Below are positions 13,964 to 63,846 of a stretch of DNA of 64,000 nt, piece after piece. The notes beneath the pieces were generated by a model, which saw only the letters and a list, made by a program, of their open reading frames with translations, did no database searches and was not told the DNA's origin. Within the stretch, counting starts at the first letter, position 1. Each line of letters begins with the position of its first letter. The stretch is from Candidatus Daviesbacteria bacterium. GTDB lineage: Bacteria > Patescibacteriota > Microgenomatia > Daviesbacterales > UBA10151. The DNA is taken from the NCBI GenBank assembly GCA_016183245.1, contig JACPEY010000011.1, positions 5,568 through 69,567 on the forward strand, given 5' to 3'. The translations under genes were made by a program, and so were the position numbers.

Positions 13964-14069
13964 TTTCTCCTTTGGTCTAAACTCCGAATTTGCTTACGTT
14001 TTTCGTTAGAAAAAGGCAAGCTCTGCTTATACATTTGGTCTAAGAGATGCACAATAAAGTATAGCAGGA

Positions 14070-14363
14070 TTATTTGAAATTGGTAAATCTAATTTCCAGA
14101 TGAGAGTTTAAGGCTTGGGCTAATTTTTTCAGAAAGGCAATTGATGGATTTGCCCGCCCTGATTCAAGTCTGGAAATTACCGATTGCTTTGTTCCAATTT
14201 TTTGCGCTAATTCCTTTTGGGTTAATCTCTTTTCAATCCTTGCTCTTAGAATAGCAAACTGTGGTTGTATTTTGTCATATTCTGCCCTCAGTTCAGGATC
14301 TTTTAAAGCTTCTTTTTCCCATACTTCGAAATCTAAATGTTGTCTATCTTTAGGTTTAATCAT
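14070..14363 (-). CDS. higA: XRE-family HTH antitoxin (HigA-like).
   Basis: An HTH (LTQKELAQKIGTKQSVISRLESG) lies immediately downstream of a Gp49/HigB-like toxin gene. Confidence 0.65.
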   Translation of the reverse strand: MIKPKDRQHLDFEVWEKEALKDPELRAEYDKIQPQFAILRARIEKRLTQKELAQKIGTKQSVISRLESGRANPSIAFLKKLAQALNSHLEIRFTNFK

Positions 14364-14375
14364 ATAGCATATATG

Positions 14376-14705
14376 CTATACTAGTTTTCTCATTCTGTCA
14401 AGCGCCACTTTTAATTCCTTTGGAGGCGTTTTCTGGCTTTTCTTTATAAAAGCGTGGAGTAAATAATATTTTCCTGCAGCTATTGTATAGAAAATTCTTA
14501 CCGATGATTTCCCCTGAATGCGAAGTTCATATAGTTTATTCTGTAACTTTTTAATGTCTGGTGGTTTTAAAAACGGACCATAATCTATTAACAATCTTAT
14601 CGAAAGATTAATTTTTGCAACTGTGTTTCTATCCTGCTTTTCAATAAACTCTTTAACGGGGTATTCACCTCTTGCTGTTTGGAAAAACAAAACTTTCCAT
14701 GCCAT
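14376..14705 (-). CDS. higB: RelE/ParE-superfamily toxin, Gp49/HigB-like.
   Basis: The KLYELRIQGKSSVRIFYTIAAGKYYLLHAFIKKSQKTP block matches the Gp49-like killer-protein pattern and pairs with the XRE gene. Confidence 0.65.
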   Translation of the reverse strand: MAWKVLFFQTARGEYPVKEFIEKQDRNTVAKINLSIRLLIDYGPFLKPPDIKKLQNKLYELRIQGKSSVRIFYTIAAGKYYLLHAFIKKSQKTPPKELKVALDRMRKLV

Positions 14706-14768: not shown

Positions 14769-15407
14769 TCACTGTGGTTCGTCTTTGGCGGCACAAGGAT
14801 CATTCTGTATTGGTATTTTATCAGATCTAATCTTTGTAAACTTGCCTGGATTTGAAGATTGCTTAATTTGTTCTGCAAAAATTCTGACTTTTTCAGGATT
14901 AACATTTAAAAGCTGAATATCCTCTAGATCTTTTGGTCGTTTTAGATTTCCCCACAGAACATTTTGTTTGCTCCAAACTTGTGCAACCGGACTCATAACT
15001 AATACTTCCCTTCCTTCAAAACTCACTGGCTGAAATTGCTCGAATAAAAAATCTACTAGCTTTTGATCGTATGGTAACTGATGATCTTGGAGCCATCTAT
15101 CTATTGAATGCACATCTATCGGTGGGCCTTCTGGATGCGGAGGGAATTCTGCAGCCATCGCACTATTACGTGTGAGGACATCTATATCTTTGGGCTTAAT
15201 CCTTTGTTGGTTTAGAAGATGTATTGCAGCTCCACCATAAATTAGATACTGAATTTGACCTTTTTCAATTTGTGGGAAAGTATTCAGTACAAATCTAAGA
15301 TGATTTTGCCATGGTTTTCCTAAATGCTCATCAAAATACATCCGTATTCGTTCTGAATACGGGTCGGGGGGTACAACGGTGGGTTTGGATTTATCTTCTT
15401 CAGTCAT
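14769..15407 (-). CDS. Hypothetical protein, possibly a minimal nucleotidyltransferase (Pol-beta-like fold).
   Basis: The motif YGGAAIHLL...KPKDIDVLT fits the GS-x(n)-DxD pattern. Confidence 0.35.
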   Translation of the reverse strand: MTEEDKSKPTVVPPDPYSERIRMYFDEHLGKPWQNHLRFVLNTFPQIEKGQIQYLIYGGAAIHLLNQQRIKPKDIDVLTRNSAMAAEFPPHPEGPPIDVHSIDRWLQDHQLPYDQKLVDFLFEQFQPVSFEGREVLVMSPVAQVWSKQNVLWGNLKRPKDLEDIQLLNVNPEKVRIFAEQIKQSSNPGKFTKIRSDKIPIQNDPCAAKDEPQ

Positions 15408-15597
15408 GTAGATTAAGTAAAATTATCAAGTTATTGTTATCTTCTTTCTTCTATTTTTAACAATTGTTAATTTGTGAGCCGGCAGGGGATAAGAGAATCT
15501 TGCCTTCCGCCATAGGCGGAACGTCGAACAGTCTTGTCCTTCGACTCGCTACGCTCGCTCAGGACGACGCAGTTGCAATCCTTGCGGCATTTACAAA

Positions 15598-15631
15598 AAA
15601 GACAGTCACAAGGACTGCTTTTTTTGTAAAG
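15598..15631 (-). terminator. Candidate bidirectional intrinsic terminator just 3' of tRNA-Lys(UUU).
   Basis: The stem-loop gacagtcacaaggactg is flanked by A-runs and T-runs on both strands. Confidence 0.4.
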
Positions 15632-15703
15632 TGAGCCGGCAGGGGATCGAACCCTGGACCAAGAGCTTAAAAGGCTCCTGCTCTACCGCTGAGCTACCGG
15701 CCC
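15632..15703 (-). tRNA. tRNA-Lys(UUU).
   Basis: A manual cloverleaf gives acceptor GGGCCGG/CCGGCUC, D-arm GCUCAGCGGUAGAGC, anticodon loop CUUUUAA and T-arm GGGUUCGAUCCCC. No CCA is encoded. Confidence 0.8.
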
Positions 15704-15784
15704 TCGCCCGCAACGCCAGCAAGCTGGCTTGCGTGGCGGGCGGGCCTCCTTGACGCAAACCAAACTCGTTTAACTAGCATTGCA

Positions 15785-16027
15785 TTAAATTCTATCCTTC
15801 AAAAACCGTCTGCCAAATCCTGTTTTAAAATACTGTTCCCTTCTAAACGCCTTATGCTTATCTGTGCAACCTTCAAAATAAACTAACTCTAATGGCCTTC
15901 TACTTTTAGTTGATTCTACTAACCCATCATTATGATCTTTAAGTCTTTGTTTTATAACAGATGTTGCTCCAACATAGAGCTTTCCATCCTTAATGCTTTT
16001 AAGAACATAAGTATAATAGAAACTCAT
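15785..16027 (-). CDS. GIY-YIG nuclease-superfamily protein (UPF0213-like).
   Basis: The motifs YTYVLKS...KLYVGATSVIKQRLKDHN are present. Confidence 0.65.
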   Translation of the reverse strand: MSFYYTYVLKSIKDGKLYVGATSVIKQRLKDHNDGLVESTKSRRPLELVYFEGCTDKHKAFRREQYFKTGFGRRFLKDRI

Positions 16028-18869: not shown

Positions 18870-19535
18870 TAAAATATATTCGCCTTTGGGATTTTTGAGA
18901 GTTTCCAGCCAACTTGAAACTGGTTTTGTTTCAACGCTTTGGTGGATTTTGGTCAGTTCATGAGCCAAAGTGATATTAATGTTTCCAAAAACTTCTTTAA
19001 TGCTTTCTATAATCCTGATTAATTTATGTGGAGCTGCAAACATTATATATGTCATCTCCCCGGGTGTCCTATCTGATTCACCCCCCAGGTGGATAAACTG
19101 AGAAAGGAATTTTTTTCTATGGCCGGGCTTTTCCGGCGGGTATCCTAAAAACATGAATTTATCAGGTGGCAGGCCGGATAAAGTAAGTGCTGTGATTGCT
19201 GATGACGGCCCTGGTAAGGAATCAACTTTAACTTCCTGTTGCAAGCACTCTCTGATTAGTTTATACCCGGGATCAGAAATTAAAGGGGTGCCGGCATCAG
19301 AAACCAGGGCCAAATTTTGGCCGTTTTTTAGACGATCGACAATAGTTTGTACACTTCGGGCTTCGTTATAGTCATTTAAAATAATTAGAGGTTTATGAAT
19401 GTTATAGTGGTTCAATAGCAGGGACGTTCTTCTGGTGTCTTCACAAATAATTCCATCAACTGACTCAAGAGTCTCTAGCGCTCTTAGGGTAATGTCTTTG
19501 AGATTGCCGATAGGAGTGGCGACAATATATAGCAT
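18852..19535 (-). CDS. rsmI: 16S rRNA (cytidine1402-2'-O)-methyltransferase RsmI (tetrapyrrole-methylase family) carrying an in-frame REP insertion.
   Basis: The family motifs LYIVATPIGNLKDITLRALETL and ICEDTRRT are present. The inserted peptide HLGGESDRTPGE is encoded by REP copy 2. Confidence 0.8.
   Translation of the reverse strand: MLYIVATPIGNLKDITLRALETLESVDGIICEDTRRTSLLLNHYNIHKPLIILNDYNEARSVQTIVDRLKNGQNLALVSDAGTPLISDPGYKLIRECLQQEVKVDSLPGPSSAITALTLSGLPPDKFMFLGYPPEKPGHRKKFLSQFIHLGGESDRTPGEMTYIMFAAPHKLIRIIESIKEVFGNINITLAHELTKIHQSVETKPVSSWLETLKNPKGEYILLFHPS
19057..19094. repeat. REP-like palindromic element, copy 2, inside the rsmI coding sequence.
   Basis: The sequence ccccgggtgtcctatctgattcaccccccaggtgga matches the family consensus. 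Confidence 0.6.
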
Positions 19536-27813: not shown

Positions 27814-30800
27814 ATGGCTGACAACACCTTTGAATATGACTTAACTTTGCCGCTGCCTCCAGAGGTAAAGGATAAGGATGTTGAGGTAAAAGCTGCTGAA
27901 ACAGAAGCAGAATTGCCTTCTGCACCTAAATTAGATGAGCCAAAAGAAAAGTTAGCAGAAACGATTACTATTAAAGGGTTAAATCACTTTACAGTTTTTG
28001 TGATAACTTTGCCCAGTCCGGATACTGCACAAAGGGTATTAATTAATGAAATATTACCAAACCCGACAGCCGGGGCAGAATGGGTAGAGCTGTTTAATAA
28101 TGGAACACAACCTGTTAATTTAGCAGCCGGGACTGGCTGGACTATAAGAAATTCAGCCTCTGATGCTCAATCTTTGAGTGCTTTGGGGACTATTCCGGCA
28201 GCAGGCAGGGTTGTATTTGAAGCCCCTGCAAACTGGTTAAGCAATGTTGCCCCAGAGACTGTTACTTTATCAAACGAGTTGGGTACAGCAGTTGATACAG
28301 TAACCATATCTTTAGTTGCGCCCGGATTTGCAATTGATCACTATCCTCTGGCAGGCGAGTCAGTCGGCAGAAAGACAGATGGCGTGGCAGAATGGGTAAT
28401 CTTTACAGCTCCGACAAAAGGGACAGCTAATTTACTACCGGCAACCGGCGGTGCGGGAAAATTGGCTGAAGTTGGACCAATTGCCCCAGCAGGTGGATTA
28501 AGAGCAGGATTCCCGGTTTGGTATAAAGATTCCAATGGTTTGGCTCTTGATTTGATGGAAGCGGCAGATCCGAGGGGGATTTCTGATCCTGTTGACCCTG
28601 GTAATCCATTTTCTGCTCAAATAGGATTTAATGCTGAAGGATTTTGGTGGTCTGCCGAAGCAGATATGTCAACCTCAGGACCAAATGGTGCTCTCCTAGT
28701 TCAGGCTATAGAAGCTGCATTTGCCGGAGAAGCTGCAGTAGATGGTGAGCAATCAGCCTTTGCCAGAGCCAGAATCAGGATTGATGTTGCCGAACCTGGA
28801 ACTTATACTGTAACTTATCCTTATGGCACAAAAACTTACACTGTAGCTTTGGCTGATATCGGCCCGGGATACGAGATTAATGATACTGCCGATATTGGTT
28901 GTTTTGCCATTCCGGGAGTACTAAATTGTGCCAGTGCGACCCAGCCTAATTTCTCAACGGTGCTAAATGGAGGAATCGGACCATTCTTAACCTGGGATAC
29001 CTTCAATACAAATCCGGCTCTTTCGGATCCGCTTTTGACTGATCCAATTACCGGAAGAAGATATGTAGGTAGTGTTTTAGGCGGGCCTCATGTAGTCAAA
29101 GGTTCTCCAACAGGTAATAATTTCTTTAGAATTGCCGGGCCAAATATCGGAGGACCAGGAGTAAATGTAGTAGAAACAAACCTATTTACTGTTACCGGAA
29201 GATTGGCAGATGCTACAGGTCCTGTTATAACCCTGCATGGGGCAAACCCAGTCAACGTCAATCAGAATGCTGTTTATACAGATGCAGGAGCCACAGCCTT
29301 GGACGACCAGGACGGAAATATAACTGCTAACATTCAAGTAACCGGTCTTCCTGTAGACACTTCAACTTTGGGATCTAAAACTGTGACCTACACCGTTACT
29401 GATAGTGCAGGCCATACTACAACAGCAACTAGAACTGTTAATGTAGTAGCTGTTGGAGGTATAGATATTACGGCTCCTGTTATTACGGTGACTGGTGCTA
29501 ATCCAGCAACAGTTACTGCCGGAACTCCGTATAACGATGCCGGGGCAACAGCATTAGATAATGTAGACGGAGATATTACAGCCAATATTGTGACCACCGG
29601 TCTACCAATAAATACTTCTGCACCCGGTTCATTTGCTGTAACTTATACTGTCTCTGATGCAGCCGGAAATCCTGCTACAGCCGCAAGGACTGTAAATGTG
29701 GTAGCAGATATTATTCCGCCGGTAATTACTGTGCTTGGATCAAATCCGGTAAACGTGCTTGTTGGTGCGGCATATACTGATGCCGGCGCTACAGCAGTAG
29801 ATAATGTTGATGGAAATGTAACAGTAAATATCACAACTACCGGCTTACCTATTAATACTGCTGCAGCCGGTTCATTTGCTGTAACTTATAATGTTACTGA
29901 TGCTGCAGGCAATACTGCTACAGCTACCAGAACTGTAAATGTAGCTGCAACTCTTCCTGCAGGACTTGTTGAAGTCGGACCCGTAGCCCCAGCAGGTGGA
30001 TTAAGAGCAGGATTCCCGGTTTGGTATAAAGATTCTAATGGTTTGGCTTTGGAATTAATGGAGGCAGCAGATCCAAATGGTATTTCTGCTGCTGTTGACC
30101 CTGGTAATCCATTTTCAGCTCAAATTGGTTTTGGTGCTGAAGGCTTTTGGTGGTCAGCCGATGCCAGTATATCTACTTCGGGGCCAAATGGTGCAATTTT
30201 AGTACAAGCTGTTGAAGCTGCATTTGCCGGAGAAGCTGCAGTAGATGGTGAGCAATCAGCCTTTGCCAGAGTCAGAATCAGGATTGATGTTGCCGAACCA
30301 GGATCTTATACTGTAACTTTCCCCTATGGTACAAAAACATATGTGGTAGATGCTGTAGGTGCAGGGTTTGAAATTAATGACACCTCAGATATTGGCTGTT
30401 TTGCCCAAATAGGAGTTGCCAGTTGTAATCAGGCCACACCTCCTAATTTCTCTACTGTACTTGCAGGTCAAATCGGACCATTCTTGACCTGGGATACCTT
30501 CAATACAAATCCGGCTCTTTCGGATCCTATCCTGACCAATATTGCAACCGGGAGAAGATATGTAGGTATTCCGGTGCCTCATGCAGTCAAAGGTTCTCCA
30601 ACAGGTAATAATTTCTTTAGAATTGCCGGGCCAAATATCGGAGGACCAGGAGTAAATGTAGTAGAGACTAATCTGTTTGATGTTACCGGACGCATAGCTG
30701 ATGTAACTCCTCCGGTTATCACTCTAAATGGTGCCAACCCGGATACTGTTGTACAAAATGCAGTATATGTGGACCCGGGATCCATAGCTTTGGATGACTT

Positions 30801-33606
30801 TGATGGAAATGTAACAGGTAGTATTGTAACTACAGGTGTGCCTGTTGATACATCTATAGTAGGCGCAAAAACTGTTACTTATACAGTTACTGATATAGCT
30901 GGTAATACAGCCGTTGCAACTAGAACAGTCAATGTAACCGGAGTAGATAACACTGCACCTGTCATTACCTTACTAGGTACTAGCCCTGTGGATGTCACAG
31001 TTGGCACGGCTTATGTTGATGCCGGTGCTACTGCTTTAGATAATGTAGATGGTGATCTAACAGCCAGTATAGTAACTGTTAATCCTGTAAACAGCAATGT
31101 TATTGGTACCTATACAGTTACTTACAACGTCTCAGATGCTGCCGGAAACCCTGCAATAGAAGTTACCAGGACGGTTAACGTAGTGGCTACGACTGATGTT
31201 ACTCCCCCAGTTTTCAGTGCTATTTCTGCAAGTTCTAATAATGCCAATCCGGCTTTGGGCAAAAGCGGTGATGTTGTGACTGTTTCTTTTGTCACCAGCG
31301 AGCCATTATCTGCCAATCCGACAGTGACTATTGGTGGTGGAGCAATGACTTTTGTCTCTCTGGCTGGTTCAACATACACATTTAACCGCACTCTGGATGG
31401 TACAGAGATTGAAAGCGGACAAATTTCCATCACCGGTTCTGATGCAGCCGGTAATCCAGGTGCCAATAATACTGCTACTTTTGCCTTGGACTTTGCACTT
31501 CCAACAGGATCGATTGCTATAAACGGTGGCGCCCTTTATACGACCACGACTGCAGTTATTTTAAATTTTTCCGGAGTTTCAGCTGATGTGACTCAAATTC
31601 AACTTCGAAACGGCACAGTTGGAGCTTTTCAGACAGCAATTCCTTTTGAAAATCCCCACGCTTATGTTTTACCTAATACCCAAGGGGTAAGAGTTGTATC
31701 TGTCCGTTTTATTGACGCAGCCGGAAATCAAAGTACCGGAGTAATTTCAGATGATATTACTTTTGATAATGTTGCCCCGACTGATCCATTGGACGTAGTT
31801 TCTACCAGCCACACTGCTAATGTATCTACGGACAATACTATTGATATGGCCTGGTCTGCGGCTGGTGCTCCTCTAGGAGCAAATGACTTGGTTAGCGGAG
31901 TAGCCGGCTATTCTTATTCTTTCACTCAAGGGGCAACTGATTTGCCTGATACTACAGTGGATTTGCCTTCAACTGCCTTGGGTGTAACCAGTGAAGCTCT
32001 AACAAATGGTACTTGGTTTTTCCACCTTAGAACTCTGGATAATGCCGGAAGTTGGACTTCAACTGTTCATGTTGGGCCATTTAATATTGATGTTGTGGTT
32101 CCGACTACAGGTACAATTTCCGGTTTGGTATTTCAGGATACAAACGCTAACCGCACCAAAGATGCGGGTGAACCGGTTCTGCCCGGATGGACGCTGTATC
32201 TGGATGCAAATAACAACAGGGTGCTGGATGCAGGGGAGGTATTAATTGTAAGCGATGCCGCAGGTAATTATCAGTTTGCAGGACTGCTTCCAGGAACTTA
32301 TAATATTAATGAAGTTAAACAGCCAAACTGGGGTATCAGGTTACCGGGAGACAATGGTTATACACAAATATTGGCTGCAGGGGATAATATCACAGGTAAG
32401 GATTTTGGGAATATAGTTACCCGGTCGGTTAGCGGCCAGGGCCAGGGAGGATTTGCAACAACTACCGGAACAACTCTGACGCCATCGGTTGTGTCAGTTG
32501 GCGACTCTGTCATTGATGTCCCTTCAAACGGGGGTACAAGCAAAGTGACAGTCCCTGCTGATACTATAATTACCGAAAGCACCGGCGCAGTTTTTGATTC
32601 GGCAGCTTTGGCAGCCTCTGACCCGGCTGGTGCGGTGATATCAGGGTTGGGAACAGGTGTTGTAGTTCGGGGAAAACTGCAATGGGGAGTTCCCAACTTA
32701 GGGTTAGTATTCTCAAACCCGATTAATTTGGAAATCTTTGTCGGTACAGATCTTAATGGGCAGGTACTTGATATACTGCGCTCAGTTGAAGGTACAACCA
32801 ACTGGACAAGTGACGGAATTGTGCCTCCGGGCAAATGCACGGTTGCAAACGGCATATGTGCGTTTCAGGCTACAAAAGCTTCATATTATATTGCAGCTCA
32901 AACTGTCAGTCCAACCCCGACACCTACTCCGACTCCTGCATCTGCTACTACCAGCGGTGGTGGAGATAGCGGAAGCGGTGGGGGAAGCGCCAGTGCTCCG
33001 TCTTGCAATGATCCTGTTGCAGGAGGCGCACCGACTTTACTCTCGGCAACTGTATCAGGAGACAATCAAGTTACCTTAACCTGGAGCAAAGCTGCTGATC
33101 CTGTAACACACTATGTAGTAGCTTACGGGTTATCAGCAGGCAACCCGCAATTTGGAAATCCAAATGTTGGCGGGAAAGAGACAACTTCTTATACAGTAAA
33201 AGATCTTTCAGGCGGTACAACTTATTTCTTCAGAGTCAGGGCAGGAAACGGTTGTAATGCCGGTCCTTACTCAAACGAAATATCAGCAACTCCCGGCGGA
33301 AGACAGACAACAGGTCCTGCAGCTGGTTTCCAGGCTGGAGTGTTAGGTGCTTCGACCTCGCTGGGAGAAGGCACGGGTGGTGCTGATCCTAATAACCCAG
33401 ACGCTCCTGATGCAGGCAAGGGTGAAGATGCAGTTACGGAAGGGATTTCTGATATCCTGGGTGCAGATCAGAAAGTAAGCGATAAACCTAACCAGTCATT
33501 TGGAGGTTTCTTGAATACTCAAAGGGCTATTATCGGGGTGTTGCTGCTATTCGTCGCACTCTTTGCTGCTAATGCTTATCGTCTAAGGGCCCGTCGCCGC
33601 AGTTAA
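27814..33606 (+). CDS. Giant 1930-aa surface protein with a lamin-tail domain, two copies of a ~250-aa module, about 6 DUF5011 Ig-like repeats, a Cna-B/SdrD-like fold, a PT linker, FN3, and a C-terminal TM plus basic tail.
   Basis: The lamin-tail motif INEILPNPTAGAEWVELFNNG is present. The DUF5011 repeats have the form PVITLxGxNPxxVxxGxxYxDxGATAxDxxDGxxT. The FN3 domain reads LTWSKAADPVTHYVVAYGL...YFFRVRAGN. The C-terminus is IIGVLLLFVALFAANAYRLRARRRS. Confidence 0.8.
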   Translation: MADNTFEYDLTLPLPPEVKDKDVEVKAAETEAELPSAPKLDEPKEKLAETITIKGLNHFTVFVITLPSPDTAQRVLINEILPNPTAGAEWVELFNNGTQPVNLAAGTGWTIRNSASDAQSLSALGTIPAAGRVVFEAPANWLSNVAPETVTLSNELGTAVDTVTISLVAPGFAIDHYPLAGESVGRKTDGVAEWVIFTAPTKGTANLLPATGGAGKLAEVGPIAPAGGLRAGFPVWYKDSNGLALDLMEAADPRGISDPVDPGNPFSAQIGFNAEGFWWSAEADMSTSGPNGALLVQAIEAAFAGEAAVDGEQSAFARARIRIDVAEPGTYTVTYPYGTKTYTVALADIGPGYEINDTADIGCFAIPGVLNCASATQPNFSTVLNGGIGPFLTWDTFNTNPALSDPLLTDPITGRRYVGSVLGGPHVVKGSPTGNNFFRIAGPNIGGPGVNVVETNLFTVTGRLADATGPVITLHGANPVNVNQNAVYTDAGATALDDQDGNITANIQVTGLPVDTSTLGSKTVTYTVTDSAGHTTTATRTVNVVAVGGIDITAPVITVTGANPATVTAGTPYNDAGATALDNVDGDITANIVTTGLPINTSAPGSFAVTYTVSDAAGNPATAARTVNVVADIIPPVITVLGSNPVNVLVGAAYTDAGATAVDNVDGNVTVNITTTGLPINTAAAGSFAVTYNVTDAAGNTATATRTVNVAATLPAGLVEVGPVAPAGGLRAGFPVWYKDSNGLALELMEAADPNGISAAVDPGNPFSAQIGFGAEGFWWSADASISTSGPNGAILVQAVEAAFAGEAAVDGEQSAFARVRIRIDVAEPGSYTVTFPYGTKTYVVDAVGAGFEINDTSDIGCFAQIGVASCNQATPPNFSTVLAGQIGPFLTWDTFNTNPALSDPILTNIATGRRYVGIPVPHAVKGSPTGNNFFRIAGPNIGGPGVNVVETNLFDVTGRIADVTPPVITLNGANPDTVVQNAVYVDPGSIALDDFDGNVTGSIVTTGVPVDTSIVGAKTVTYTVTDIAGNTAVATRTVNVTGVDNTAPVITLLGTSPVDVTVGTAYVDAGATALDNVDGDLTASIVTVNPVNSNVIGTYTVTYNVSDAAGNPAIEVTRTVNVVATTDVTPPVFSAISASSNNANPALGKSGDVVTVSFVTSEPLSANPTVTIGGGAMTFVSLAGSTYTFNRTLDGTEIESGQISITGSDAAGNPGANNTATFALDFALPTGSIAINGGALYTTTTAVILNFSGVSADVTQIQLRNGTVGAFQTAIPFENPHAYVLPNTQGVRVVSVRFIDAAGNQSTGVISDDITFDNVAPTDPLDVVSTSHTANVSTDNTIDMAWSAAGAPLGANDLVSGVAGYSYSFTQGATDLPDTTVDLPSTALGVTSEALTNGTWFFHLRTLDNAGSWTSTVHVGPFNIDVVVPTTGTISGLVFQDTNANRTKDAGEPVLPGWTLYLDANNNRVLDAGEVLIVSDAAGNYQFAGLLPGTYNINEVKQPNWGIRLPGDNGYTQILAAGDNITGKDFGNIVTRSVSGQGQGGFATTTGTTLTPSVVSVGDSVIDVPSNGGTSKVTVPADTIITESTGAVFDSAALAASDPAGAVISGLGTGVVVRGKLQWGVPNLGLVFSNPINLEIFVGTDLNGQVLDILRSVEGTTNWTSDGIVPPGKCTVANGICAFQATKASYYIAAQTVSPTPTPTPTPASATTSGGGDSGSGGGSASAPSCNDPVAGGAPTLLSATVSGDNQVTLTWSKAADPVTHYVVAYGLSAGNPQFGNPNVGGKETTSYTVKDLSGGTTYFFRVRAGNGCNAGPYSNEISATPGGRQTTGPAAGFQAGVLGASTSLGEGTGGADPNNPDAPDAGKGEDAVTEGISDILGADQKVSDKPNQSFGGFLNTQRAIIGVLLLFVALFAANAYRLRARRRS

Positions 33607-34514: not shown

Positions 34515-36548
34515 ATGGCAAAATTTCAAATTGTTTCAGATTTCAAACCTACTGGGGACCAACCACAAGCCATTGAGAAGCTGGTTAACGGGATAAATAA
34601 AGGCAGACAGCACCAGGTTTTGCTTGGAGTAACAGGTAGTGGTAAGACTTTTACTATGGCTAATGTTATCCAGAAAGTGCAAAGGCCGACCCTGGTTATT
34701 TCCCATAATAAAACTTTAGCAGGACAACTGGCTCAGGAGTTTAGGTCTCTGTTTCCAAATAACGCTGTTGAGTATTTTGTTTCTTATTATGATTATTACC
34801 AGCCAGAAGCGTATATTCCCCAATCAGATACTTATATTGAAAAGGAAACCCAGATTAATGAGGAAATAGAAAAGTTAAGGCTGTCTGCAACTGCATCACT
34901 GCTTAGCAGAAAAGATGTGATAGTAGTAGCCTCAGTTTCTGCAATCTATAACTTAGGTTCTCCAATAGAGTATGGCCAGGCAATACTGGAAATCGGCCCG
35001 GGCATGAAAGCCGGTATGCAGCAGGTGATGAAGATTTTGCAGAAGATGTTTTATAAGCGCAATGATATTGATTTTAAAAGGGGGACATACCGGGTCAGGG
35101 GTGATACGGTTGATATTTTTCCTTCATATAAAGATCAAGGTTACAGGTTACAATTTTTAGGGGACAGACTGGAGAGTGTAAGCGAGTTGGAGGTTGTGAC
35201 AGGTAATGTTTTAAAAATGCAGGGAACGCAGACTATTTATCCTGCCAAGCATTACATTACTTCGGAACAAAGGATTGTGCCGGGAATTAAACAAATAGAA
35301 ATCGATTTAGAATCTAGAGTCAAGAGTCTAGAGTCAAGTGGAAAATTGATAGAAGTGCAGAGATTAGACCAAAGGACAAATTATGATTTGGAGATGATCC
35401 GGCAATTCGGGTACTGCAACGGAATTGAAAATTACTCCCGCTATTTTGACGGCCGGAACCCCGGGGACCCTCCATATACTTTGCTTCATTACTTTCCTCA
35501 AGACTTTTTGCTCGTTATTGATGAATCCCATATGACTATCCCTCAAATTCGGGGGATGTATAACGGGGACCGGTCAAGGAAGGAAACTTTAATAGATTTT
35601 GGGTTCAGGCTGCCTTCGGCTTTGGATAACAGGCCCTTAAAGTTTGATGAGTTTATGAGGATGATTAACCAGGCAGTTTATGTTTCAGCCACTCCGGATG
35701 AGTATGAATTATCCCTAGCGAATTCATCCCACCTGGGGGGTGGTCTAGATAGGACACCTAGGGGTACTGATGGGTTGTATAGCCATGATGGGATAGCGGA
35801 ACAATTGGTCAGGCCAACTGGGATTTTGGATCCGGAGGTTTCTGTAAGACCGATTAAAGGTCAAATTGAAGATTTATTAAGAGAAATAGAGACTAGAGTC
35901 AAGAGTCAGGAAAGGGTATTGATAACAACTTTAACCAAAAGAACAGCTGAAGATTTGGCAGATTATTTAAAGGAAAAAGGCATTAAGGTGCACTATCTGC
36001 ACTCTGATGTTAAAACTTTAGAAAGAGGGGATATTTTACAGGCTTTGAGGTTGGGGGAATATGATGTGATTGTGGGAATTAATTTACTTCGGGAAGGTCT
36101 GGATTTGCCGGAAGTTTCACTGGTGGCAATTTTAGATGCTGATAAGGAAGGGTTTTTAAGGTCCAGGACTTCTTTGATACAGACCATGGGCAGGGCTGCC
36201 AGGCATGTTAGAGGGCAGGTAATTATGTATGCCGACATTGTCACCAAATCCATGAAAGCAGCCATAGATGAGGTAAAAAGAAGGAGGAAATATCAGGCAG
36301 ATTACAATAAAAAACATAATATTACGCCGAGAAGCATAGAAAAAGCTTTACGGGAAAGGTTGATAGAGAAAGTAGAGGAGCTGGAAGAATCTTTGGGTAA
36401 AACAGATTTAACTGTTGATGATATTCCGGTAGAGGATCGGAAAAAAATGATTAAAAACCTGGAAGCCCAGATGAAACAGGCAGCAGAACTTTTAGACTTT
36501 GAAGAAGCTGCCAAAATTCGGGATCAGATTAAGGAGTTAAGTATTTAG
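34515..36548 (+). CDS. uvrB: Excinuclease ABC subunit B (UvrB) carrying an in-frame REP insertion.
   Basis: Walker A (GVTGSGKT), helicase motifs, the VRPTGILDP block and the C-terminal UVR motif (EEAAKIRDQI) are present. The region between YEL and QLVRPTG is about 20 aa longer than the E. coli UvrB sequence recalled from memory, and it contains HLGGGLDRTPRGT. Confidence 0.9.
   Translation: MAKFQIVSDFKPTGDQPQAIEKLVNGINKGRQHQVLLGVTGSGKTFTMANVIQKVQRPTLVISHNKTLAGQLAQEFRSLFPNNAVEYFVSYYDYYQPEAYIPQSDTYIEKETQINEEIEKLRLSATASLLSRKDVIVVASVSAIYNLGSPIEYGQAILEIGPGMKAGMQQVMKILQKMFYKRNDIDFKRGTYRVRGDTVDIFPSYKDQGYRLQFLGDRLESVSELEVVTGNVLKMQGTQTIYPAKHYITSEQRIVPGIKQIEIDLESRVKSLESSGKLIEVQRLDQRTNYDLEMIRQFGYCNGIENYSRYFDGRNPGDPPYTLLHYFPQDFLLVIDESHMTIPQIRGMYNGDRSRKETLIDFGFRLPSALDNRPLKFDEFMRMINQAVYVSATPDEYELSLANSSHLGGGLDRTPRGTDGLYSHDGIAEQLVRPTGILDPEVSVRPIKGQIEDLLREIETRVKSQERVLITTLTKRTAEDLADYLKEKGIKVHYLHSDVKTLERGDILQALRLGEYDVIVGINLLREGLDLPEVSLVAILDADKEGFLRSRTSLIQTMGRAARHVRGQVIMYADIVTKSMKAAIDEVKRRRKYQADYNKKHNITPRSIEKALRERLIEKVEELEESLGKTDLTVDDIPVEDRKKMIKNLEAQMKQAAELLDFEEAAKIRDQIKELSI
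35727..35764. repeat. REP-like palindromic element, copy 3 (reverse orientation), inside the uvrB coding sequence.
   Basis: The sequence tcccacctggggggtggtctagataggacacctagggg matches the family consensus in reverse. Confidence 0.65.
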
Positions 36549-37803: not shown

Positions 37804-37840
37804 TTCCACCTGGGGGGTGGGCTAGGTAGGACACCTAGGG
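37804..37840. repeat. REP-like palindromic element, copy 4, at the 3' flank of the RAYT.
   Basis: The sequence tccacctggggggtgggctaggtaggacacctaggg matches the family consensus. Confidence 0.65.
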
Positions 37841-37862
37841 AAATTAGATAATTTCAAGTTTA

Positions 37863-38612
37863 CTATTCCTGTACGAGATGTTGAATTTTATGAAGTTGTC
37901 TTTGATAATCGGCATGGTCTTCGATAAATTTTTGATAAACCTTAGGATTTATGAAAAGGCTCATTATTATATCTAAATTACAAATCTCAGCCTTATTACT
38001 TAGATATTCAGAGAGGGATGACCAGGGATATGCAAATAAGGTATTTAGATCCTTTACGACGTAGGAGGTATAGGGATTGAGATGAATGTATCTTGAAATG
38101 TGTATTAACTGTTCATCAGTTATGATTAGTTTAGCTTTAAATTGATCTAAGAAGAGTGATCCATCGCGTTCTCTTTTAGTATTAGAATATCTAGTGTAGC
38201 TATTTTGAAAATTCCCCAAAAATTTAGAAATTCCCTTATCTTTAATTTGTTTTATTAAAAAATGGAAATGATTTGGCATTAAACAAAAAGCCAGAATTTC
38301 TACAAGCTTATCATCTTCTTTCCTCAAATTATCCATAATTTTTGTCCGGTCATCATTTGAAAGTGTTAGAAATTTTGATAATTTAGCGGGAAGATTGCTG
38401 AATCTATAGAAGTCGATTACAAGCCTTGCTCTTTTGTATTCCAGTTTATCTAAGAAAGTTGGTTGATGATTTATCCCACGGTTAAAAACATGATAAATTT
38501 GGTCATTAACTAAAGGTGTTAATCTACCCGGCATATTTCTTAGAATAACCCTGATATCCCTAGGTGTCAATAGAAATCCACCCCCCAGGTGGACTATACT
38601 ATTCAGATTCAA
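37863..38612 (-). CDS. REP-associated tyrosine transposase (RAYT; IS200/IS605-like Y1 HUH transposase).
   Basis: The N-terminal block YHVFNRGINHQPTF, the HUH motif NHFHFLI and the catalytic-Tyr block RYIHLNPY are present. The first ~17 codons (HLGGGFLLTPRD) are REP-encoded, so the real start may be the internal Met at ~38534. Confidence 0.75.
   Translation of the reverse strand: MNLNSIVHLGGGFLLTPRDIRVILRNMPGRLTPLVNDQIYHVFNRGINHQPTFLDKLEYKRARLVIDFYRFSNLPAKLSKFLTLSNDDRTKIMDNLRKEDDKLVEILAFCLMPNHFHFLIKQIKDKGISKFLGNFQNSYTRYSNTKRERDGSLFLDQFKAKLIITDEQLIHISRYIHLNPYTSYVVKDLNTLFAYPWSSLSEYLSNKAEICNLDIIMSLFINPKVYQKFIEDHADYQRQLHKIQHLVQE
38558..38594. repeat. REP-like palindromic element, copy 5, at the 5' end of the RAYT.
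   Basis: The sequence ccctaggtgtcaatagaaatccaccccccaggtgga matches the family consensus. Confidence 0.65.
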
Positions 38613-49179: not shown

Positions 49180-50085
49180 ATGTGTATAAAATATTATATG
49201 AAAGCTGAAGCTTTAAACGCACCGTTTCAAGGATCTTTTGACGATTTATTTCTTCCGTCGAAATTAAGAGAAAAAGGTGGCAGGCATGATTTTATGAGGG
49301 GGAGGCTGGGTATTGTAAGGACATGTGTAGAACAGGCAGGACTAGCCGTACCTTTACGATATCGAGAGGATGAGCATTTCTGGTTTACGGTAATGAGGAA
49401 TTATCGAGTTACGTCCAGTACCCTAAGGCGTAGAATGCCTGGTAGTAATTTTAAAACAACATCACTGGAGCTTGCAGTGGAGAATGCAGGAAGGATTTTA
49501 GCAGTAGAGCAAGACGCAGCTTTAGATCCTTTAACAGGTGCCTGGTCTCGGGGTTCCTTGGACAGATTCTTAAGTAATGTATTAAATACGGCTACCAGAA
49601 GGATGTCTACTGCAGGAGTGCTGATGATAGATGTAGACTATTTTAAGAAATATAATGATCAAGAAGGACATAAAGCAGGGGATCAAATTCTTATAGATAT
49701 GGTACGTATATTACAAGGATCTGTGCGTGGAAACGACATGGTGGCAAGATATGGCGGAGAAGAATTTACAATTGTATTACCAGTTTTAACAGCTCCGCGA
49801 CTGGCTTCTGTAAGGGCTGAAGAATTCAGGAGAAGGATTGCTGAAATGACGCGGGTTACTGTTAGTATAGGAGTTACTACTGTATCTAAACAAGATGAAG
49901 ATGTTGAGTCTGTTCTTGTAAGAGCAGACGGTAATCTTTATAGGGCAAAAGAAGGAGGAAGAAATGTGGTCTTTGATGATAGAGGGAGAGTAACCGCAAG
50001 AGATAAAAAAATAATTCCAAAGCAAGCATGGCTTCGCTTGGCGAGCGAGGCAGCTGCGGGAATTCCTGGCATTATTCCTGTCTGA
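49180..50085 (+). CDS. GGDEF-domain diguanylate cyclase.
   Basis: The active-site motif RYGGEEFTIVLP and the substrate-binding blocks YNDQEGHKAGD and RADGNLYRAKEGGRN are present. The start may be the internal MKAEAL. Confidence 0.7.
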   Translation: MCIKYYMKAEALNAPFQGSFDDLFLPSKLREKGGRHDFMRGRLGIVRTCVEQAGLAVPLRYREDEHFWFTVMRNYRVTSSTLRRRMPGSNFKTTSLELAVENAGRILAVEQDAALDPLTGAWSRGSLDRFLSNVLNTATRRMSTAGVLMIDVDYFKKYNDQEGHKAGDQILIDMVRILQGSVRGNDMVARYGGEEFTIVLPVLTAPRLASVRAEEFRRRIAEMTRVTVSIGVTTVSKQDEDVESVLVRADGNLYRAKEGGRNVVFDDRGRVTARDKKIIPKQAWLRLASEAAAGIPGIIPV

Positions 50086-50147
50086 CGGCCTAAACTCAGA
50101 GTTTGCTTATTGGTTTGGCCTAAAAAATGCATAATAAAGTACAATAG

Positions 50148-51182
50148 CTATTTATTCCTCAAAATATAGTAAGTTGCTTTCCCCTTATCTTTTCTATCAA
50201 CTAGGCCTAAATCTATTAATTTTTTAAAATCTAATGCCCTGGTTGCTTTTGCACGATCAACTAATTTAGCGTAATCTCGATCAGCAATGAATCCTTTCTC
50301 CCTAATAAACTCAAGTATTTTTAGATGATAAGGTTTAAGTTGTGTTTCTGGACTAATCCCAACTCCTGGTAAGATTTTTTGGATTCTTAAAAGTTCATCA
50401 ATAATTCCCTCGGTAAAATATTCCAGCCATGGGGTGAAATCTATTTTACCTTCCAGTTCATAATAATTACCAAATTCTCCTACTGTCTGAAAATATTTAG
50501 TAACGTTTTTGCTATAGTAGTTTTCAAAGCTAAACAAGTTAAAAGTGTTCAGTCCCACTTCAGCAAGCAACACTTTTGTAGCAAGACGGGTTGATCTGCC
50601 GTTACCATCCATAAAAGGATGGATAATTACCATCTGCTTATGGAAAATACCAGCTAAAATGAGTGGGTCAATTTTATCTCTGTTATTTTTTGTGAACTCA
50701 ATAATATCCTTTAGAAGTTCCTTTACATCTTTTGCGTCAGGAGGTAAATATATAACTTTTCTCGTTCTCGGATCATTTACAACTACCGGTTTTTCTCTTA
50801 ATTTTCCAGATTCAAATTTAGGTAATAATCCTTCGGTAATTTGTTTTTGGATTTTTAGAATAAGATTAAGAGATAATCTCACTTGTGCTTTTTCAAGATT
50901 TACATTTAAATTTTGTAACGCTTGATTGTAATTTAAAACTTCCCTTTCGCTATCTCTGATATGGGCAGGCTTAGATTTAAGGATTTTTTTAACTTCTGTT
51001 AGAGGAAGGGGGTTCCCTTCAATACTAGTTGAGGCATACGCTGAAACAGCCCTTGCAGTTCTTTCAAGTTCTACTAACACAACATGAGGGAATCTCCTAT
51101 TATTTAGTTCATTTACTAAAGTATTAATTCTTTTAATATTTGCAAGAAGACGATCCGTAATAGTATATTGAGGTATAAACAT
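50148..51182 (-). CDS. Fic-family protein (AMPylator/Doc-like) with a C-terminal winged HTH.
   Basis: The Fic motif HPFMDGNGRSTR is present. Confidence 0.85.
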   Translation of the reverse strand: MFIPQYTITDRLLANIKRINTLVNELNNRRFPHVVLVELERTARAVSAYASTSIEGNPLPLTEVKKILKSKPAHIRDSEREVLNYNQALQNLNVNLEKAQVRLSLNLILKIQKQITEGLLPKFESGKLREKPVVVNDPRTRKVIYLPPDAKDVKELLKDIIEFTKNNRDKIDPLILAGIFHKQMVIIHPFMDGNGRSTRLATKVLLAEVGLNTFNLFSFENYYSKNVTKYFQTVGEFGNYYELEGKIDFTPWLEYFTEGIIDELLRIQKILPGVGISPETQLKPYHLKILEFIREKGFIADRDYAKLVDRAKATRALDFKKLIDLGLVDRKDKGKATYYILRNK

Positions 51183-51405
51183 ATAGTCTAATTATAAGCA
51201 GAGCTTGAAATACTCCATAGTCGTATTATAGACGATAATTAGACGATTGGCAAGAAGAAAAATTTCGATCCTTGTATTCTCTCGGAATAAGGTTCTGGAG
51301 GTATGACAACAGCTTTCGGTAGTTCTGCCATATTTTGTTGAATTATTAGAACGTTTTTAAATTCCTATTAACTTCTTTCATCTATAACCGCAGGTTACAC
51401 TCTTT

Positions 51406-51419
51406 TTAACAATTGTTAA
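51406..51419. promoter_or_regulatory. Perfect 14-bp palindrome TTAACAATTGTTAA (operator-like), distal copy.
   Basis: The palindrome was seen directly and lies in the intergenic region between the Fic gene and the HTH gene. Confidence 0.35.
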
Positions 51420-51626
51420 CTTGTGATCCCAACGATACTCTCCACAGACTGCAAGAATTCGTTGAAACCTTTCTTTCTATGAAGATTTTACCAGATTTAA
51501 TATGGTGGTTGCAACCAGAATTAGCCTCAAAAATGCCTGAAAGAAGAGTATAACCCCTTTTCTTATACTTTTTACTTCTTTCAAATCTTGTTTAAAAACC
51601 TATTTTTTATGCAAAATCATGTACAA

Positions 51627-51638
51627 TAACAATTGTTA
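51627..51638. promoter_or_regulatory. Palindrome TAACAATTGTTA (operator-like) about 20 bp upstream of the small HTH gene, overlapping a TACAAT -10-like hexamer.
   Basis: The sequence gtacaataacaattgttaac lies immediately upstream of the ATG at 51660. Confidence 0.4.
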
Positions 51639-51659
51639 ACTACTTTTAATTAGGATAAG

Positions 51660-51839
51660 ATGGAGCGGTCAAAACTTCTTACAATTAACCAAGTTGCGAA
51701 AATACTAGGGGTCTTACCTTCAACCCTTAGAAGATGGGATAAGTCTGGAAAACTAAAGGCAATTAGGATTGGAAATAAACGAGGAGTCGGAGAAAGACGA
51801 TATCGGAGAGAAGATATTATCAGATTAATAACACAGTAA
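51660..51839 (+). CDS. Small 59-aa HTH DNA-binding protein (excisionase/MerR-like), absent from the ORF track because it is under 60 aa.
   Basis: The translation MERSKLLTINQVAKILGVLPSTLRRWDKSGKLKAIRIGNKRGVGERRYRREDIIRLITQ carries the classic LTxxEVAxxLGVSxxTLRRW HTH. Confidence 0.55.
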   Translation: MERSKLLTINQVAKILGVLPSTLRRWDKSGKLKAIRIGNKRGVGERRYRREDIIRLITQ

Positions 51840-51896
51840 AAACTGATTACTTTCTACTTTAATAAAATTAGTGACTATAACCGTTCAAAGATATTT

Positions 51897-52652
51897 TTAA
51901 TCAGAGGTAGGTATTCCTCTTAATTGATAAGAAGCTCGTCTGTATCCATCATGTCTTTTATTAAGTAATCGAACAGCAGTTTCTAAACCTGCCACATTTG
52001 TGATATTGAGTGATTCAAAAGCTCGAGAAATAAAACTAGAAGTAGCTTCTCCAGCTCTCTGAAGTTGTGGATGCTCGTCCATTCTTGCAATAGCTTGATT
52101 TTGATGCAATAGATCAAAAAGTTCTCTGTGTCTTTGCTCGGCCGCTGAAATTGCCTTAATACCAAACTGTTCTATAAGATCATTTTCCCATTTACCTGCA
52201 TATTGCGGCCATCTACGAGCTAAATCTCTATACGTTGTAAAAAGTTCTTCTGGTTTACCTGCAGCTACTCTTACTAAATGGTAGCCAGCATGACAAGCCA
52301 AGAATTGTCCATCTAACGCTCCCTCTTCAAACATAATCCTTTTCAAATCATTTATCGCTGATCTTAAATCAGCATTATAAGCGGGTGTCTGACCGTCAGA
52401 AGTTCTGAAGGTCGTTAATAGCCGACTGCAAACATCATCCAGGTTATCTGAAGGGAATACCGTAGTCCAGGGAATATCAGTGGTTCCGCTATCTTCTTGT
52501 GTCAAAATAGCATTAGCAACTTCAATAGCCACTTGCCTAGGAAGCGGTTCAAAAACCTTTTTGGCTTTCTCCCCAATAGGAACAAGCCATTCATTTGAGG
52601 TATAACGATTCGCTCGATCTTCTGTACTCATTATTGTTGCTAATTTTACCAT
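51897..52652 (-). CDS. Hypothetical protein.
   Basis: An intact 251-aa ORF with no recognised motif. It lies between the HTH gene and tRNA-Lys(CUU). Confidence 0.4.
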   Translation of the reverse strand: MVKLATIMSTEDRANRYTSNEWLVPIGEKAKKVFEPLPRQVAIEVANAILTQEDSGTTDIPWTTVFPSDNLDDVCSRLLTTFRTSDGQTPAYNADLRSAINDLKRIMFEEGALDGQFLACHAGYHLVRVAAGKPEELFTTYRDLARRWPQYAGKWENDLIEQFGIKAISAAEQRHRELFDLLHQNQAIARMDEHPQLQRAGEATSSFISRAFESLNITNVAGLETAVRLLNKRHDGYRRASYQLRGIPTSD

Positions 52653-52996
52653 CTTCTACTACGCTTTTCAGGCTATAGGATTAGTTATAGGAGGTGATTA
52701 TCGTAAATGTTACCTTTGGATGTGATTAGAAAATATTATCCTGACTTATCAGATGAAGAATTGAAAAAAATACAGGTGTTTGTTTACCAGTTATGTTGTG
52801 GATTAATGCAATACTTTTATGGAGACAACTGGGAAGGGGATACTGGTGATCCGGACTTGAAAAATGAAGAAGGTTGATATAACAACCTAATCATGAGTTC
52901 GAATCCTAAGCGGTCTCTCGTTTATAGGATTAAATCTAAGCAATTTTTCTCGAATTGCCGAAGCTAAAATTTTGCAAAAGCACTTATATCATCCTG

Positions 52997-53068
52997 TGAG
53001 CCGGGTGGGATTCGAACCCACGGCCAATGGATTAAGAGTCCATTGCTCTACCGCTGAGCTACCGGCCC
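52997..53068 (-). tRNA. tRNA-Lys(CUU).
   Basis: A manual cloverleaf gives acceptor GGGCCGG/CCGGCUC, anticodon stem AUGGA/UCCAU, loop CUCUUAA and T-arm GUGGGUUCGAAUCCCAC. Confidence 0.8.
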
Positions 53069-53263
53069 GTTATAATCTATCTTTCAAAAACTTTCTTCCA
53101 AATCCTGTCTTAAAATATCTTTCTCTTTTCAATTCAATGAGTCCCGCCCGCAACGCCTGAGCAAGCTTCAACATCAAACTACATTGTATATTCTAACAAT
53201 TTATGCTCAAAATGTCATTTCTGGGAACAGAGGGAACAGAAAAGAGGGGTGCTGTAATAATCA

Positions 53264-63803: not shown

Positions 63804-63833
63804 GTGTTCTATCTAGACCACCCCCCAGGTGGA
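63798..63833. repeat. REP-like palindromic element, copy 6, overlapping the gnd stop codon.
   Basis: The sequence ccctaggtgttctatctagaccaccccccaggtgga matches the family consensus. Confidence 0.65.
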
Positions 63834-63846
63834 TAAAAATAAAGTT

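Follow-up and report, generated by a model that had tools for sequence, protein, structure and literature searches.

A stretch of 64,000 nt from Candidatus Daviesbacteria (Microgenomates, candidate phyla radiation (CPR)), referred to as the window, was analyzed together with related metagenome and genome contigs, which were labelled L001–L036. The subject is a family of small gene cassettes, possibly mobile, that are found behind tRNA genes and carry two conserved ends, named as End1 (start) and End2 (finish). The original prediction had pointed to a 17-bp duplication of the 3′ end of tRNA-Lys(UUU), lying next to a palindrome that recurs at 51 kb, and had taken both as remnants of related integrative elements that target tRNA-Lys genes. 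The features at the duplication are as follows.

15631 to 15703, minus strand: tRNA-Lys(UUU) (ARAGORN; Rfam tRNA model, 69 bits); its last 17 nt (15631–15647) are copy 1 of the repeat.
15491 to 15630, minus strand: non-coding mini-unit of 140 bp between both 17-mers, with a bidirectional terminator hairpin at 15590–15630 (terminator scan).
15536 to 15565 and 15505 to 15521, minus strand: GC-rich hairpin and CCGCCnnnGGCGG hairpin of the mini-unit, respectively.
15474 to 15490, minus strand: copy 2 of the repeat, an exact 17-mer read as a leftover tRNA-Lys(UUU) 3′ end, directly abutting End1; the same junction is present in L010 and L015.

The 17-mer GTGAGCCGGCAGGGGAT was found exactly twice in the window (15474–15490 and 15631–15647), with 0 copies expected by chance from shuffles, and no extra copy that could bound a larger island was detected in the window at up to 3 mismatches. 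L002, an independent Logan assembly (SRR4343430) that was compared base for base with the window, was identical in both copies, in the 140-bp spacer and in the palindrome. The same 17-mer stands side by side with the same palindrome in two more metagenome contigs, L010 and L015. The predicted duplication was thereby borne out, and it behaves as an att-type signature, being an exact direct repeat of a tRNA 3′ end that flanks 15491–15630. The DNA between the copies is no island, consisting of only 140 bp of non-coding hairpins.

The mini-unit has a GC content of ~50% versus ~35% in its surroundings and is strongly structured (folding z-score −4.3), with a terminator hairpin directly after the tRNA followed by GC-rich hairpins. 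No other copy was found in the window, so its reading as a dispersed repeat was dropped; Rfam detected the tRNA alone and no known RNA family in the 140-bp unit, and the unit is absent from the syntenic contig L033. In L015, the 17-mer occurs three times and bounds two mini-units, the first of which is homologous to the mini-unit of the window. An alternative in which no 140-bp element was ever integrated was weighed here: the 17-mer would be the remainder of a former tRNA-Lys(UUU) gene next to End1 that inserted GC-rich hairpins had destroyed, and the working tRNA would be its replacement. Decay of this kind is seen in L004 (3650–3760), where a 116-nt spacer plus an 18-mer represent a decayed tRNA-Lys(CUU) of the window type with GC-hairpin insertions in the anticodon loop and the T-loop and with the first ~20 nt missing (alignment score 49.8, versus a shuffle mean of 21.4 and maximum of 35). 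The three UUU mini-units also share GTTCGA, the CCGCCnnnGGCGG hairpin and a ...CTT plus 17-mer end, which could be a T-loop split by a hairpin. However, the window and L015 units beyond the 17-mer align with tRNA-Lys(UUU) at the shuffle level (~22–23 versus a mean of 23), no second tRNA is found by Rfam, and a terminator of its own opens every unit. The repeat has a sharp boundary, at which CTT precedes the 17-mer in all units where the tRNA itself has TCG, indicating a common element-derived end. In addition, the 17-mer is 100% conserved in 5/5 copies from two diverged genomes, whereas the spacers have diverged. We therefore regard this alternative as rather unlikely. The assignment of the mini-unit as a tRNA pseudogene, which is true for L004, was not significant for the window or L015 and is not favored for these.

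The L004 pseudogene directly joins the 3′ end of a working tRNA-Lys(CUU) that differs considerably from it.

The palindrome TTAACAATTGTTAA is exact at 15457–15470 and 51406–51419, with 0 copies expected from shuffles, and a further copy with one mismatch lies at 51626–51639, 20 nt before the ATG of a 59-aa helix-turn-helix (HTH) gene at 51660, in agreement with the palindrome sharing originally described. The near-identical string noted at 51400–51425 is a real similarity, but it is not a 24-nt island: both palindrome sites are homologous over ~150 nt, a stretch that takes in ...TCAC, the palindrome and the initial ~20 codons of a nucleotidyltransferase (NTase)-like gene. When the 22-mer CACAARTTAACAATTGTTAAAA was used as the query against 241 million metagenome records, only 15 stretches matched, indicating that the palindrome is not a frequent AT-rich word. 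Viral contigs gave 3 matches to the palindrome string and 0 to End2; the one palindrome match inspected among the three looks like a chance match in AT-rich coding DNA. No paper containing the palindrome string was found in a literature search.

These counts also bear on the suspicion that the repeats are an assembly artefact or AT-rich words repeated by chance. Short repeats can become duplicated in metagenome assembly, and Logan contigs do break at the tRNA, but the independent assembly L002 is identical, L010, L015 and L004 are homologous, and shuffles give 0 expected copies; this explanation is already refuted for practical purposes.

Logan contigs from six samples break at or in the tRNA-Lys(UUU) gene or the 17-mer (the start of L001 and the ends of L022–L026). 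These breaks may reflect alternative neighbours of tRNA-Lys(UUU) in the community.

A scan of genome contigs with the 212-aa NTase-like protein encoded next to the 15-kb palindrome returned a single relative, the 8.4-kb contig L003 from a metagenome-assembled genome, in which three exact palindromes each lie within the same ~40-nt sequence before three unrelated genes. The Gammaproteobacteria label of this record is probably a binning error; its genes match cassettes of the Daviesbacteria/Levybacteria type. The ~40-nt sequence, with the consensus AARTTAACAATTGTTAAAAATAGATGAAAGAAGTTAA, was named as End1. Profile searches (nhmmer) for End1 and End2, run across the window and the related loci examined, located End1 in 22 places, starting directly after ...TCAC; TCAC precedes every End1 copy, though its T was absent from the search pattern. 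The copies follow an intact tRNA at four loci (tRNA-Lys(UUU) in L008 and L009, tRNA-Lys(CUU) in L011 and tRNA-Glu(CUC) in L014), a tRNA 3′ fragment at four loci with the working tRNA 116–720 bp off (the window, L015/L010, L004 and L016), and an End2 terminus in ~9 places (the window at 51 kb, L003 three times, L005, L018, L009, L013 and L033); three others have degenerate left flanks (L006, L007 and L017). The palindrome lies 3 nt into End1, and both cassette boundaries show TCAC without exception. Judged from these alignments, the palindrome is part of the conserved End1 and not a free-standing operator.

End2 is a conserved sequence of ~123 nt, found in ~25 places, that opens at the stop codon of the final cargo gene and closes with ...GTTTAAGGTACTAGCGGGATCAC, its terminus resembling a tRNA acceptor end (...GCGGGATCAC). 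A variant, type-1 End2, comes after the promoter region of HTH_17 or Bro-N genes. Between End1 and End2, each cassette carries 1–3 genes, and the units measure 0.14–4.4 kb. The cargo, identified by sequence or Pfam, includes Fic (in the window and seven other loci), HigBA (twice), Phd-RelE, BrnT/BrnA-like pairs and NYN, as well as M23 peptidase, HAD hydrolase, cupin and peptide deformylase. One complete cassette was observed in the 66-kb contig L014, in the order tRNA-Glu(CUC), End1, 309-aa gene, Fic, End2 and then host genes (RibD-, YhhQ- and Lon-like by sequence). Cassette arrays were found in L003 (three junctions), L009, L013, L016 and L033. The order in L016 is tRNA-Glu, Phd-RelE, a 12-nt repeat, End1-cupin-End2 ending in GGGGTCAC, and UvrA, which is the same stacking logic as at tRNA-Lys(UUU) but with genes. 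The End2 termini follow the local tRNA end: GCGGGTCAC is present at both the tRNA end and the End2 terminus in L009, CTCTGGGGTCAC occurs twice in L016 next to the GGGGTCAC form in End2, and one L003 copy has GCCGGCTCAC. Direct repeats of 9–12 nt flank units in L009 and L016.

These arrangements help to judge whether cassettes exist at all, since End2 plus End1 might instead be one ~165-nt intergenic repeat, either MITE-like (MITE, miniature inverted-repeat transposable element) or promoter-bearing, whose proximity to tRNA genes is incidental or due to homologous recombination alone. The two ends are contiguous in ~9 places, and the conserved 40-nt and 123-nt stretches would suffice for RecA-mediated swapping of the DNA between them. 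Moreover, no recombinase family was found in Pfam scans of 40 window open reading frames (ORFs), in the roughly 2.5–3.4 kb past each window end or in the gene tables of ~20 related loci; likewise, no integrase encoded within an element and no autonomous partner element supplying one was found in the loci examined. Six of the scanned window ORFs (231–342 aa) and several related ORFs have no Pfam match. A single repeat does not account, however, for an End1 alone that starts exactly where four intact tRNAs (three kinds) end, for End2 alone stopping exactly at TCAC beside unrelated DNA (L003 at 4738, L016, L007 and L014), for the complete End1...End2 unit between a tRNA and host genes in L014, or for End2 termini that co-vary with the local tRNA end. 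We judge it unlikely.

On the reverse strand of End2, an open frame of 38–46 codons (MLTCDPxxTLxRLxEF...) is present in the window (51413–51553), L003, L005, L009, L013, L016 and L018. The only start codon available to it is within the palindrome of the following unit, which means that the frame is complete only where End2 and End1 are joined, and the diversity at its third codon positions is 0.27, versus 0.15–0.18 at the other positions. The possibility that it is the N-terminal part of some longer protein (for example, a recombinase) was rejected: the database holds only hypothetical proteins of 39–106 aa, and the N-terminal read-through is unrelated.

The window itself contains two cassettes (A and B) and a unit of another type (C). 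Cassette A runs from 15473 down to ~13973.

15433 to 15473, minus strand: End1 of cassette A (nhmmer E = 2e-8; aligned with 20 other copies), with the palindrome at 15457–15470 and a third half-site GATAACAAT.
14769 to 15407, minus strand: cargo 1, the 212-aa NTase-like protein (Pfam PF08843 (AbiEii), 17.5 bits, below the 22.5-bit cut-off).
14376 to 14705, minus strand: cargo 2, HigB-like (Gp49) toxin (Pfam PF05973, 72 bits, E = 4e-20).
14070 to 14363, minus strand: cargo 2, HTH_3 antitoxin (Pfam PF01381, 61 bits, E = 1e-16).
13973 to 14067, minus strand: truncated End2 of cassette A (blastn, nhmmer and alignment), with the terminal ~60 nt including TCAC lost and an internal insertion.

Cassette B runs from 51420 down to ~50054 and is the second member of an array behind tRNA-Lys(CUU), after unit C.

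52996 to 53068, minus strand: tRNA-Lys(CUU), the anchor of the second array (ARAGORN).
51421 to 52995, minus strand: unit C ("type-1", adjoining the tRNA), which starts with AGGATGAT... directly after the TCAC of the tRNA.
52707 to 52877, plus strand: 56-aa gene of unit C.
51897 to 52652, minus strand: 251-aa gene of unit C.
51660 to 51839, plus strand: HTH_17 gene of unit C.
51421 to ~51600, minus strand: type-1 End2 of unit C, ending ...GGGATCAC, with the small reverse-strand ORF at 51413–51553.
51368 to 51420, minus strand: End1 of cassette B (nhmmer and alignments), with the palindrome at 51406–51419 and an 18-nt insertion, joined to the End2 of unit C at the TCAC of 51422–51425.
51239 to 51331, minus strand: 5′ fragment (30 codons) of an NTase paralogue, fused to the region upstream of Fic (translation; alignment with 15280–15520).
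51225 to 51253, minus strand: promoter-like site of Fic, TTGCCA-17-TATAAT (promoter scan, 11/12).
50148 to 51182, minus strand: Fic (SoFic-like), the cargo of cassette B (Pfam Fic E = 9e-17; PADLOC SoFic E = 2.6e-43).
50054 to 50149, minus strand: truncated End2 of cassette B (nhmmer E = 1e-24), starting at the Fic stop codon, with a GC-rich insertion after ...CCCGCAG and the TCAC part lost.

In both cassettes the End2 relic directly follows the last gene, and both are probably immobile or fixed now, to judge from these truncations. The gene calls of the original prediction agreed with Pfam for Gp49/HigB and HTH_3, GIY-YIG, SNase, Fic and HTH_17, with the AbiEii-like NTase remaining below the cut-off. 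The cassette A pair shows the HigBA-type order, a Gp49/HigB toxin then an HTH_3 antitoxin, and a homologous pair is located inside the cassette array of L013. A homologue of the 212-aa NTase (76% identity) also follows an End1 copy in L003. Its identity as part of an AbiE type IV toxin-antitoxin system was rejected, with the PF08843 match below the cut-off, no PADLOC or NCBIfam match and no adjacent AbiEi gene. The sequence upstream of Fic in the window precedes Fic in L014 as well, and L014 has a GC hairpin inserted in End2 at the same point as cassette B. Units of the unit C type recur in L033 and L035; their ends and gene order (tRNA-Lys, 56-aa gene ... HTH_17, End2) agree with those of unit C while the cargo is another, and in L027 both ends of this type are joined to each other. 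The claim that remnants of related units lie at both tRNA-Lys loci was supported, as related and decayed inserted units were found in both.

Two further observations concern these units. A tRNA-like 3′ relic, GAGTTCGAATCCTAAGCGGTCTCTC, lies at 52895–52919 (plus strand) beside the stop codon of the 56-aa gene, in the opposite orientation to tRNA-Lys(CUU), and is kept at the same place in L003, L027, L033 and L035. The Fic promoter region (window 51225–51253; L014 5300–5345) is conserved with a direct repeat, AATCGTCTAAT-AATCGTCTATAAT, which may be a separate regulatory site.

Content at the same tRNA was found to vary between relatives. L033 is syntenic with the window from RR-CysS through tRNA-Lys(UUU) to SNase-DUF192 (identities of 84% for RR, 65% for CysS, 59% for SNase and 57% for DUF192), and its tRNA-Lys(UUU) 3′ end is identical to that of the window; directly after TCAC, however, it carries a different array of 6 kb, so that the DNA behind the same tRNA is entirely different. 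At the tRNA-Lys(CUU) locus of another relative, L004, the cargo is unlike that of the window. SNase and DUF192, on the far side of the tRNA, are conserved neighbours also present in L033, and the view of SNase as an accessory gene was not upheld.

The 59-aa protein of unit C was assigned to HTH_17 (PF12728, 47.3 bits versus a cut-off of 27, E = 2.5e-12). It passes the cut-off of the TIGR01764 excisionase domain (31.3 versus 28.8 bits), also matches BldC and the PADLOC model mad1, and is 100% identical to an NCBI Candidatus Daviesbacteria protein. Palindrome-like sites were detected upstream of HTH_17 in 7/8 loci examined. In L027, L033, L034 and L035/L036, the start codon is preceded by a site (2 mismatches at most) at a distance of no more than ~35 nt, just downstream of TATAAT; the distance is ~110 nt in L030 and ~70 nt in L003, and no site was seen upstream of the homologue in L029. 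A type I restriction-modification operon (L029, 8001–13819) and a Qat-like operon (KAP NTPase, QatB, QueC and TatD; L034, 7001–12020) each have an HTH_17 homologue as their leading gene. Since the homologues lead defence operons and have palindrome sites, autoregulation of HTH_17 via the palindrome is plausible, and End1 may be a second target. Leadership of defence operons fits a transcription regulator better than a dedicated excisionase. The predicted role of the palindrome as the operator of the HTH gene gains comparative support from its link to HTH_17 starts, but the palindrome beside the 17-mer is not HTH-specific, as End1 precedes many unrelated genes.

Taken together, we favor, with some reserve, the reading that, in this Candidatus Daviesbacteria genome and its relatives, the 3′ ends of tRNA-Lys and tRNA-Glu genes are hot spots where units join one after another exactly after TCAC, and that the 17-mer is a displaced old junction. 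End1 of cassette A (End1-NTase-HigBA) would have been joined to the tRNA-Lys(UUU) end, as End1 still is to the tRNA in L008, L011, L009 and L014; the 140-bp mini-unit would have entered later at the tRNA end and restored the tRNA, and the old junction would have been displaced, leaving the 17-bp direct repeat. The 51-kb palindrome would be the End1 of a paralogous, damaged cassette (NTase fragment-Fic). Movement of the units may proceed through conservative site-specific recombination, with the tRNA end and the matching End2 terminus as partners and an enzyme encoded elsewhere. Site-specific recombination is favored because the End2 termini vary with the local tRNA end, which fits strand exchange within the last 8–17 nt of the tRNA gene. 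The BldC/excisionase-like HTH_17 could bind the palindrome, repressing cassette promoters and perhaps also serving as a directionality factor. A hypothetical empty site would read ...GGTTCGATCCCCTGCCGGCTCAC joined to AAATTAACAATTG.

The wider proposal, that Microgenomates of the CPR possess mobile cassettes with two conserved ends and no recombinase, which stack defence and toxin-antitoxin genes after the TCAC of tRNA genes and share a control or recombination module of the End1 palindrome and HTH_17, is put forward as tentative, being possible but less than probable; no description of such a system was found. It may represent an integron-like gene-capture platform anchored on tRNA genes, with an enzyme encoded elsewhere and units that swap between tRNA loci and genomes. 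Several observations count against the favored reading of tRNA ends as hot spots. Besides the lack of a recombinase, no empty site, circular junction or population polymorphism was seen in the assembled contigs, so that mobility is deduced from anatomy alone. End2 is truncated in both window cassettes and a cargo gene in one of them, the End2 terminus of unit C (TTGGGATCAC) has only ~TCAC in common with tRNA-Lys(CUU), and the distal repeat of L014 is imperfect (GGGATCTC). End1 and HTH_17 occur together in only three loci examined (the window, L003 and L033), and no clear sigma-70 consensus was found by a simple scan of End1 at 15 kb. Finally, the spacer plus partial tRNA of L004 is a decayed whole tRNA gene with no att scar, indicating that partial tRNA copies at such a position can arise in another way.

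Movement without an own recombinase might also be explained by IS200/IS605- or HUH-type single-strand transposition 3′ of TCAC, with terminal hairpins and Y1 proteins acting in trans that resemble REP-associated tyrosine transposases (RAYT; REP, repetitive extragenic palindromic). The invariant TCAC at both boundaries, the palindrome near the start of End1 and a CCCGC...GCGGG hairpin located 1 nt ahead of the TCAC of End2 would suit such a mechanism, as would cassettes that lack any recombinase, and the window has two Y1/RAYT-like genes, at 37863–38612 and 53264–53833, the second beside tRNA-Lys(CUU). The targets, however, are tRNA or End2 ends alone, which is far narrower than a tetranucleotide, and the direct repeats of 9–17 nt that flank units (window, L009, L015 and L016) are not made by such a mechanism. 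In addition, the Y1 genes score below the RAYT cut-off, that at 37863–38612 is flanked by its own, different REP sequences, and the End2 hairpin is absent in some copies. We consider this explanation highly improbable.

The RAYT-like gene at 37863–38612 (region 37805–38612) is flanked by inverted REP-like repeats of ~40 nt, CCACCTGGGGGGTGG...CCTAGGG, and more copies lie at 19048–19101, 35729–35763 and 63793–63841, with one directly after End2 in L014. The RAYT-like gene at 53264–53833, directly upstream of tRNA-Lys(CUU), scores 63.7 bits with NCBIfam REP_Tyr_transpos (cut-off 80).

Upstream of tRNA-Lys(UUU), one more gene is to be listed.

15785 to 16027, minus strand: GIY-YIG gene (Pfam), directly upstream of tRNA-Lys(UUU); a relic of its 3′ end at 53070–53132 is 79% identical (repeat family D11).

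Each tRNA-Lys gene thus follows the 3′-terminal part of a small GIY-YIG gene (15785–15847 versus 53070–53132), and the tRNA genes themselves (15631–15703 versus 52996–53068) are also 79% identical, which suggests that a GIY-YIG plus tRNA-Lys block was duplicated long ago and that the anticodon changed later. GIY-YIG is also found near tRNAs in L035 and beside tRNA-Glu in L016. Between GIY-YIG and tRNA-Lys(UUU), at 15704–15784, lies a GC-rich inserted hairpin (CGCCCGCAACGCC...GGCGGGCG), with a related string at 53133–53170. Similar hairpins interrupt End2 in the window (~50035–50060) and, at the same position, in L014, and apparently some ORFs continue through them, one case being the C-terminal end of the GGDEF protein (49180–50085). 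Elsewhere in the window, a 1930-aa ORF at 27814–33606 contains internal repeats of ~243 nt and ~1.5 kb (families D1–D6).

CPR genomes are tiny, and their acquisition and shuffling of defence genes are poorly understood. If the cassettes are truly mobile, they would constitute a compact gene-capture system that uses tRNA ends as the docking site and has no enzyme of its own. The cargo (Fic/SoFic, HigBA, Phd-RelE and BrnTA), together with the HTH_17-led type I restriction-modification and Qat-like operons, suggests a system that feeds the defence repertoire. The conserved ends offer a sequence handle for mapping cassettes in metagenomes and for seeking the recombinase by co-occurrence. Within the window, the 17-bp repeat and the palindromes would be scars and boundaries of decayed units and not an active element.

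Among known systems, those closest to these units are tandem islands linked to tRNA or tmRNA genes, namely the Prochlorococcus tycheposons (bioRxiv 10.1101/2020.12.28.424599) and the Dehalococcoides ssrA-specific islands (PMC3146451), along with the integrase-less elements discussed last. In tycheposons, newer units push older ones away from the tRNA, and degenerate remnants and scattered partial tRNAs occur (bioRxiv 10.1101/2020.12.28.424599). The units described here are alike in their insertion at tRNA 3′ ends (tRNA or tmRNA in those islands), in the partial end copies at their boundaries and in their adaptive or defence cargo. They differ in that those islands are defined by their own tyrosine recombinase and often carry replication genes, whereas the units here are without a recombinase, are much smaller (0.14–4.4 kb), include one family with conserved non-coding ends and share an identity with the tRNA as short as 8–12 nt.

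Integron gene cassettes and the pdif modules of Acinetobacter plasmids are small, carry one or two genes, many of them toxin-antitoxin genes, encode no recombinase and form arrays in the same direction. As in those systems, each unit here ends in a conserved sequence resembling a recombination site. Unlike in integrons, no IntI, attI or Pc was found here, and the arrays begin at tRNA genes and not at attI or dif; unlike in both, the cassettes have a conserved start that is not known to act as a promoter. End2 was rejected as an attC-like hairpin, with single-stranded DNA folding z-scores of +1.9 to −2.0 and no long hairpin, and no GTTRRRY cores were seen at the cassette boundaries by inspection. 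On these sequence grounds, the End1/End2 units are not integron cassettes. The small MerR-like proteins of the BldC/excisionase family offer another parallel, with an HTH_17 gene near the unit boundary and a palindrome at its own promoter, although no partner integrase is present here.

The cis-mobilizable elements (CIMEs) related to the integrative and conjugative elements (ICEs) of Streptococcus are reportedly flanked by att sites, devoid of integrase and transfer genes, arranged in tandem and probably dependent on an enzyme supplied in trans (Pavlovic 2004; Bellanger 2011). They reportedly derive by deletion from a recognisable ICE and lie beside it, whereas the units here have no known autonomous partner and share conserved ends instead of a common ICE ancestor; both have att-like bounds, lack recombination and transfer genes, and lie in tandem with other units. 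The term CIME itself is used in PMC5704250 and PMC7563491.

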